The position numbers and the translations under genes were made by a program. From Escherichia coli (GTDB taxonomy: Bacteria; Pseudomonadota; Gammaproteobacteria; Enterobacterales; Enterobacteriaceae), in the NCBI RefSeq assembly GCF_024700885.2, contig NZ_CP117016.1: DNA of 64,000 bases; one strand, written 5' to 3'. The notes under the pieces were generated by a model. The model had not been told where the DNA came from, searched no databases, and was given only the letters and a program-made list of their open reading frames with translations. Shown piece after piece: positions 40,050 to 40,346 of this stretch (within the stretch, counting starts at the first letter, position 1; every line of letters starts with the position of its first letter).

Positions 40050-40069
40050 TACTGTATAAATATACAGTT
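40050..40069. promoter_or_regulatory. LexA (SOS) box
   Basis: TACTGTATAAATATACAGTT matches TACTGTATATATATACAGTA at 18/20 positions, with CTGT-N8-ACAG intact. It ends 19 nt before ATG 40089. Confidence 0.7.
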
Positions 40070-40088
40070 ATTGCATGGAGAAGATAAG

Positions 40089-40346
40089 ATGCAGCAGTAT
40101 CACTATCCACTGGAAGACGGATTTACCGAAAGGATTCACACGCCGGGAGGCGTCAGGTCACTGGTGGATGGATCGCACTTGATGAAATTACTCCGGGATC
40201 TCGATAAGGATGGATTTAATGTCGATGGCCCACTTGCCGAACTGACTGCACTGATTAACTACGTCACCAGCTCACAGATGTCTATGCAGGATCTGCAAAC
40301 ACATCTCGACTATTGTGCCGAACAATTACGAAAACAAACTACATAA
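40089..40346 (+). CDS. Small hypothetical protein under SOS-box control (candidate antirepressor / SOS-induced moron)
   Basis: Internal ATG of ORF 39966-40346 with RBS ggagaa at 7-nt spacing. 85 aa starting MQQYHYPLEDGF. The longer ORF would put the LexA box and promoter motifs inside coding sequence. Confidence 0.5.
   Translation: MQQYHYPLEDGFTERIHTPGGVRSLVDGSHLMKLLRDLDKDGFNVDGPLAELTALINYVTSSQMSMQDLQTHLDYCAEQLRKQTT

Follow-up and report, generated by a model that had tools for sequence, protein, structure and literature searches.

The closest described counterpart of the locus reported here is the antirepressor and repressor pair (Ant and Rep) of phage SPC32H, whose Ant is said to differ in structure from Sipho- and Myoviridae antirepressors, and for which the genetics were reportedly worked out by Kim & Ryu in 2013 (J Virol) and the structure by Kim et al. 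in 2016 (PNAS; PDB 5D50 and 5D4Z). In later papers SPC32H Ant is treated as an antirepressor that depends on LexA and takes the Rep tetramer apart (PMC7380047, PMC9638917, bioRxiv 2025.11.27.690993, PMC9437464), and in one of these accounts an Ant tetramer captures two Rep dimers and so breaks the DNA-binding Rep tetramer (PMC9638917). Ant has been crystallised in complex with its repressor, and the complex is deposited as PDB 5D50, in which chain E is Ant and chain A is the repressor.

Other phages resemble this system in part. In phage P22 the antirepressor gene lies in the immI region, where it neighbours the tailspike gene and is separate from the main immunity region. The P22 Ant protein is large and is controlled by Mnt and Arc, not by LexA, and P22 ant mutants are still SOS-inducible because the c2 repressor is cleavable. 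The Gifsy-1/Gifsy-3 and Fels-type prophages reportedly encode LexA-regulated small antirepressors of non-cleavable repressors, some of which act in trans, a description that is credited to Lemire et al. in 2011; these are lambdoid siphoviruses with the antirepressors encoded elsewhere in the genome, and the likeness drawn here is one of regulation. Tum of coliphage 186 follows the same logic of a LexA-repressed promoter, a small antirepressor and a non-cleavable phage repressor (PMC7380047), although 186 is a P2-like myovirus and is likened here by regulatory logic alone. Control of P22 Ant by Mnt is described in the same source (PMC7380047).

We analyzed a 64,000-nucleotide stretch of Escherichia coli DNA (contig NZ_CP117016.1), referred to throughout as the window, which contains part of a phiV10/epsilon15-type podovirus prophage of the genus Uetakevirus integrated at guaA. 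The open reading frame at 40089-40346 is very probably ant, the SOS-triggered antirepressor gene of this prophage. The main landmarks are as follows.

33539-33555, minus strand: attL core AATCACTCCCACTCAAT, with one mismatch to the attP/attB core reported for ZX5, phiV10 and epsilon15
36819-39893, minus strand: tailspike gene, 1024 aa
40089-40346, plus strand: ant, 85 aa, predicted antirepressor, by homology the ortholog of SPC32H Ant, epsilon15 gp19 and phiV10 gp24
40378-40674, minus strand: predicted membrane protein, 98 aa (phrog_3075, unknown function; weak holin-like Pfam match)

An exact copy of the attachment core is present at the 3′ end of guaA (L012 5934), and together with attL it places the prophage from ~33.5 kb in the window to ~8.6 kb past its right end. 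Left to right, the genes encode the lysis proteins, an O-antigen acyltransferase, the tailspike, Ant, the 98-aa membrane protein and the large virion proteins, and all of these are on the minus strand with the exception of ant, so that the initial annotation was right to place the ORF on the strand opposite the late genes, as both the ORF list and RefSeq attest. It had also called this location unusual, which it is not: every Uetakevirus examined, with SPC32H, epsilon15, phiV10, Tyrion, BUCT554 and the Klebsiella phages among them, has ant on the opposite strand, flanked on one side by the tailspike gene and on the other by the last internal-virion or membrane-protein gene, and tailspike-adjacent ant is the rule. 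The arrangement parallels the immI (mnt-arc-ant) region of P22. The window stretch is matched in 543 of 5,426 complete E. coli genomes (about one in ten), including O26 and O103 STEC strains.

The 98-aa protein is encoded by the last late-strand gene before the terminator (see below), in a slot where SPC32H and phiV10 have a membrane protein of 46 aa and epsilon15 has the 64-aa gp18; the small membrane-protein gene downstream of SPC32H ant thus differs from the one in the window prophage. We take this slot to be analogous to the position of sieA in P22, and by that analogy a role for the 98-aa protein in superinfection exclusion is conceivable. A gene that is absent from the window is found just downstream of ant in phiV10, where gp23 (L002 6766-7350) is a Bro-N protein (Bro-N E = 1.6e-21). 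Its C-terminal residues 148-181 are homologous to the N-terminal third of Ant (phrog_450 E = 7e-8; BLASTP 42% over 31 aa), and this C-terminal segment may be a shared Rep-binding module. There is also a tRNA gene at 57570-57643 (Rfam 71.7 bits; RefSeq tRNA-Arg) between the terminase and portal blocks of the late region.

The 85-aa protein corresponds to RefSeq WP_025651152.1 of E. coli MLI114, a strain with a chromosome identical to the window, and is annotated there as a 'hypothetical protein'. It is identical at 73 of 84 residues (87%; pairwise E = 3e-57) to SPC32H_020, and the gene is labelled 'ant: anti-repressor protein' in the GenBank records of both SPC32H and SPC32N. A search of the PDB sequences returned a single match, 5D50 chain E 'Anti-repressor protein' (E = 3.3e-47), which spans residues 2-85. 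Identity is 98.8% to ZX5 Ant, 96% to phiV10 gp24 and 83% to epsilon15 gp19, the last two being annotated as 'hypothetical', and tblastn against phage records found 35 records, all of them epsilon15-like phages of Escherichia, Salmonella, Enterobacter and Klebsiella. Thirty-six positions are invariant in the Ant alignment. The domain databases give little: the protein belongs to phrog_450 (E = 3.7e-47), which is labelled 'unknown function'; a Pfam scan gave no domain at E < 0.004, the lone weak match being to an unrelated DUF; NCBIfam returned no family; and the ANT and Bro-N domains of P22-type Ant and Bro-N antirepressors were absent by Pfam.

Upstream of the ORF is a near-consensus LexA box, which together with its neighbouring signals is listed here.

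40027-40055, plus strand: putative ant promoter, inferred from conservation of the TGCTGGATAG block
40050-40069: LexA operator TACTGTATAAATATACAGTT, overlapping the ant core promoter
40078-40081, plus strand: ribosome-binding site GGAG, 7 nt before the ATG and invariant in an alignment of ten phages
40352-40369: G+C-rich hairpin between the convergent ant and 98-aa late-strand genes, an intrinsic terminator

The operator TACTGTATAAATATACAGTT departs from the consensus TACTGTATATATATACAGTA at two positions, and when up to three mismatches are allowed it is the sole match in the window, with none in 100 dinucleotide shuffles. Since the bare CTGT-N8-ACAG core is not rare (three occurrences in the window against 0.85 expected), it is the full 20-mer that carries the signal. 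We also computed a Lewis-type heterology index (HI) with a matrix rebuilt from 27 E. coli LexA sites (Lewis 1994, Fernandez de Henestrosa 2000), which gives approximate values: ~1.1 for TACTGTATAAATATACAGTT, lower than any of the reference sites (1.4-9.5), and 10.6 for the second-best site in the window. The box ends 19 nt before the ATG at 40089; its sequence is a palindrome, and within the divergent intergenic region 157 nt separate it from the ATG of the tailspike gene. The box as first described, its 19-nt spacing to an ATG preceded by a ribosome-binding site, and the 85-aa ORF that follows are thus all upheld by the sequence and by the RefSeq CDS.

The box is conserved among relatives. 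When the tailspike-ant intergenic regions of ten phages are aligned, TACTGTATAAATATACAGTT falls column for column on the SPC32H box, and the same columns form the box in the window, phiV10, SPC32H, epsilon15, Tyrion and BUCT554, with the CTGT and ACAG arms intact and the spacers variable. The window box is the closer of the two to consensus, SPC32H having an approximate HI of 2.5-3.6 against ~1.1 here. SPC32N differs from SPC32H in the tailspike-ant region by a single change, C to A within the ACAG arm, at a cost of ~4 HI units. Kim & Ryu are said to have reported in 2013 that a one-nucleotide change in the LexA site makes Ant constitutive, and the SPC32N change matches this.

A further 83 loci were scored, 78 from IMG/VR and five from bacterial genomes of other genera (Citrobacter braakii, C. 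werkmanii, Ca. Erwinia dacicola, Pseudocitrobacter faecalis and Scandinavium); the latter five came from a contig scan with strict peptide patterns and do not constitute a census. A box with an HI of ≤3.9 that ends 18-22 nt from the start codon is present in 82 of the 83 (six genera), although many of these loci are near-identical E. coli prophages and hence not independent, so that the informative part is the cross-genus loci. The best HI in 81 control windows was 13.9. There are ten distinct box sequences among the related loci, in which the arms are fixed and spacer bases vary. The sole exception is L043 1-1500 (IMGVR_UViG_2563366870_000004), where an ISL3-family insertion sequence (406-aa transposase, DDE_Tnp_ISL3 E = 1e-58) lies within the left arm of the box and has removed the CTGT arm and the upstream ant promoter region. 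A chance palindrome was considered as an explanation of the box and is ruled out by the shuffles, the HI and the conservation at related loci. Judged from this conservation, the operator is homologous to that of SPC32H and under selection. In Klebsiella Uetakevirus-type phages (L008, L009 and L010) the box, ~30-50 nt upstream of ant, is ATATGTATATATATACAGTA, in which ATGT replaces CTGT; from its approximate HI of 6-8 it is predicted to be a weaker operator than those of the E. coli, Salmonella and Enterobacter phages.

The putative ant promoter consists of a -35-like TGGATA (40027-40032), a 17-nt spacer and a -10-like TACTGT (40050-40055) that forms the left arm of the box, with TATAAA at 40055-40060 as an alternative -10. 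The TGCTGGATAG block is near-invariant among the ten phages, and its distance is fixed in related loci. A sigma-70 consensus scan called no ant promoter at the thresholds used, and the lone plus-strand match upstream (TAGACA-17-GATATT, 39971-39999) does not exceed what chance would give in this region. We also considered a longer ORF of 126 aa, from the ATG at 39966, and rejected it, since protein conservation begins at 40089 and the box and ribosome-binding site would fall inside it. At the other end of the gene, folding confirmed the hairpin at 40352-40369 (seven pairs, six of them G-C, with a loop of 4), with which the initial annotation had closed the ORF. The hairpin itself is real, and the epsilon15 record annotates a terminator at the equivalent position, but it suits the opposing transcript better than ant: the T-run is on the minus strand (tail TTTCTTTATG), so that it is primarily a terminator of the converging late-gene transcript, and the ant-strand tail TGTGACATGT is a poor U-tract. 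The hairpin may nonetheless act in both directions. An Rfam scan of the window found only the tRNA and no known RNA element at ant.

The repressor, which had been expected to be encoded outside the window, is indeed found 2,681 nt beyond its right end. The gene and its predicted operators are as follows.

L012 11240-11824, minus strand: Rep, 194-aa HTH protein of the MLI114 prophage, at the position of SPC32H rep
39997-40013: palindrome of the Rep-operator type, ATTACCTTTCAGGTAAT, between the divergent tailspike and ant genes and 36 nt to the left of the LexA box
57232-57248, 60443-60459 and 60461-60477: further copies of ATTACC-N5-GGTAAT, all four copies being at the heads of late transcription units

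The full length of Rep is covered by a match to 5D50 chain A 'Repressor' (E = 4e-42); Rep is 42% identical to SPC32H Rep and 100% identical to the Reps of phiV10 and ZX5 (phiV10-type Rep, WP_000836290.1). Pfam gives HTH domains only (HTH_3), with no Peptidase_S24 at E ≤ 0.01, and lambda CI-like autocleavage is therefore not to be expected. The architecture, two HTH-type domains without S24, is that of SPC32H Rep. Residues that are invariant across the two Rep types span both domains (e.g. NLVNRW in the N-terminal domain and YD..Y..LP..EK.KI near the C-terminus), and Ant and Rep are found in essentially the same phage records. Between E. coli and Salmonella phages the identity is 83-87% for Ant but only 42% for Rep, with Enterobacter Reps intermediate (75-78%). 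From these comparisons, either the interface would be conserved within a diverged Rep, or Ant would tolerate different Reps.

With ≤1 mismatch allowed, the window holds four copies of the motif ATTACC-N5-GGTAAT where 0.05 would be expected, and these precede the divergent tailspike and ant genes, the gp3-portal operon and terS. The motif is also present in the rep-early intergenic region of SPC32H (three copies) and in the immunity region of the window prophage, and the epsilon15 record predicts 'repressor' sites at the same relative places. In 82 of the 83 related loci this palindrome lies 92-95 nt upstream of the ant start. The copy at 39997-40013 is probably part of the Rep regulon and may act on the tailspike promoter, the ant promoter or both, and the distribution of the motif suggests direct repression by Rep of all the late transcription units and perhaps of ant too. 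The tandem palindromes at 60443-60477 (L012 18028-18062) sit 45-79 nt inside the RefSeq terS CDS (224 aa), whereas in epsilon15 the equivalent site precedes a terS of 198 aa; RefSeq has probably placed the start codon of terS too far upstream.

The locus thus shares with the SPC32H system the phage genus, the gene position, Ant, a LexA box at the homologous promoter-overlapping position, a two-domain non-S24 Rep and the ATTACC/GGTAAT operator type. It differs in its host, here E. coli, and in its diverged Rep. The proposal that the ORF encodes an antirepressor draws its support from the identity to SPC32H Ant, the homologous LexA box and the presence in the prophage of a Rep homolog that lacks an autocleavage domain. 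By homology to SPC32H, we infer LexA binding, SOS induction of ant and Ant-Rep contact in the E. coli prophage. In an undamaged lysogen, host LexA would occupy the operator at 40050-40069, over the -10 region and the likely transcription start, and ant would be silent. Upon DNA damage RecA would become active, LexA would cleave itself and ant would be transcribed; Ant would then bind Rep, a protein with two HTH domains and no autocleavage domain, and with Rep off its ATTACC-N5-GGTAAT operators the lytic genes would be turned on. Given that Ant and Rep co-occur and that Rep has invariant residues, the interaction would be expected to carry over to the phiV10-type Rep, even though Rep is only 42% identical to its SPC32H counterpart and Ant 87%. 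Lysogens of ZX5, whose Rep is identical to that of the window prophage, are inducible with mitomycin C, and overexpression of Rep blocks lysis and abolishes free phage (PMC9782041). Prophages of the phiV10 species of Uetakevirus are induced by a DNA-damaging microcin (bioRxiv 2026.05.26.727859). The ZX5 study credited antirepressor activity to the neighbouring Bro-N protein; it tested only Bro-N and not the small Ant (PMC9782041).

The mismatch between the identities of Ant (87%) and Rep (42%) to their SPC32H counterparts is what would be expected if ant were LexA-controlled but Ant were inactive on the diverged resident Rep, with induction occurring by another route such as Bro-N, or with Ant directed at the repressors of other prophages. 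The lowered lysogeny upon overexpression of the ZX5 Bro-N protein ORF4 (PMC9782041) and the Ant-like C-terminal segment of the phiV10 Bro-N protein point the same way. However, we consider this improbable, as the window prophage, which lacks a Bro-N gene, has nonetheless retained ant and a near-perfect box, every lineage examined has Ant together with Rep, the invariant residues lie in both Rep domains across the two Rep types, and purifying selection on box and ORF is evident across hundreds of E. coli prophages. Even less probable is that the box mainly regulates the divergent tailspike and late genes, with the small ORF being incidental. A palindromic box in a divergent region, 157 nt from the tailspike ATG, could in principle serve in that direction, but it keeps a distance of 18-22 nt to the ant start in 82 of the 83 loci, the conserved -35-like block and ribosome-binding site are on the ant side in the aligned phages, a separate conserved palindrome of the Rep-operator type lies nearer the tailspike, and the SPC32N operator change was reportedly tied by Kim & Ryu in 2013 to control of ant.

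Least probable of all is the alternative offered by the initial annotation, an SOS-induced moron, taken here as one with a function unrelated to prophage induction, for example a DinI-like modulator or a toxin. The absence of a Pfam or NCBIfam family and the 'unknown function' label of phrog_450 would leave room for it, yet it is contradicted by the high-identity homology to a protein crystallised with a phage repressor; a DinI-like or other moron function is ruled out by the match to 5D50 chain E, and with the homology to SPC32H Ant no such alternative is needed. We therefore retain the interpretation of the ORF as the SOS-triggered antirepressor gene. Beyond it, there is some chance, though a small one, that ant is doubly controlled, by LexA and by Rep at the palindrome at 39997-40013, or, in a related possibility, that a single Ant can inactivate Reps that are only 42% identical. 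With double control, titration of Rep by Ant would add to the derepression of ant and likewise of the tailspike promoter that diverges from it, so that the pair would form a positive-feedback commitment switch; an Ant tolerant of different Reps would allow cross-induction between Uetakevirus prophages with different Rep types.

The LexA-Ant-Rep switch of epsilon15-like podophages is already known from genetics (2013) and structure (2016), and the finding is a confirmation of it. The gap is one of annotation, in that the E. coli ortholog is a 'hypothetical protein' in RefSeq, phiV10, TL-2011b and ZX5. Correct naming of ant would improve the prediction of which prophages are SOS-inducible, and by what route.
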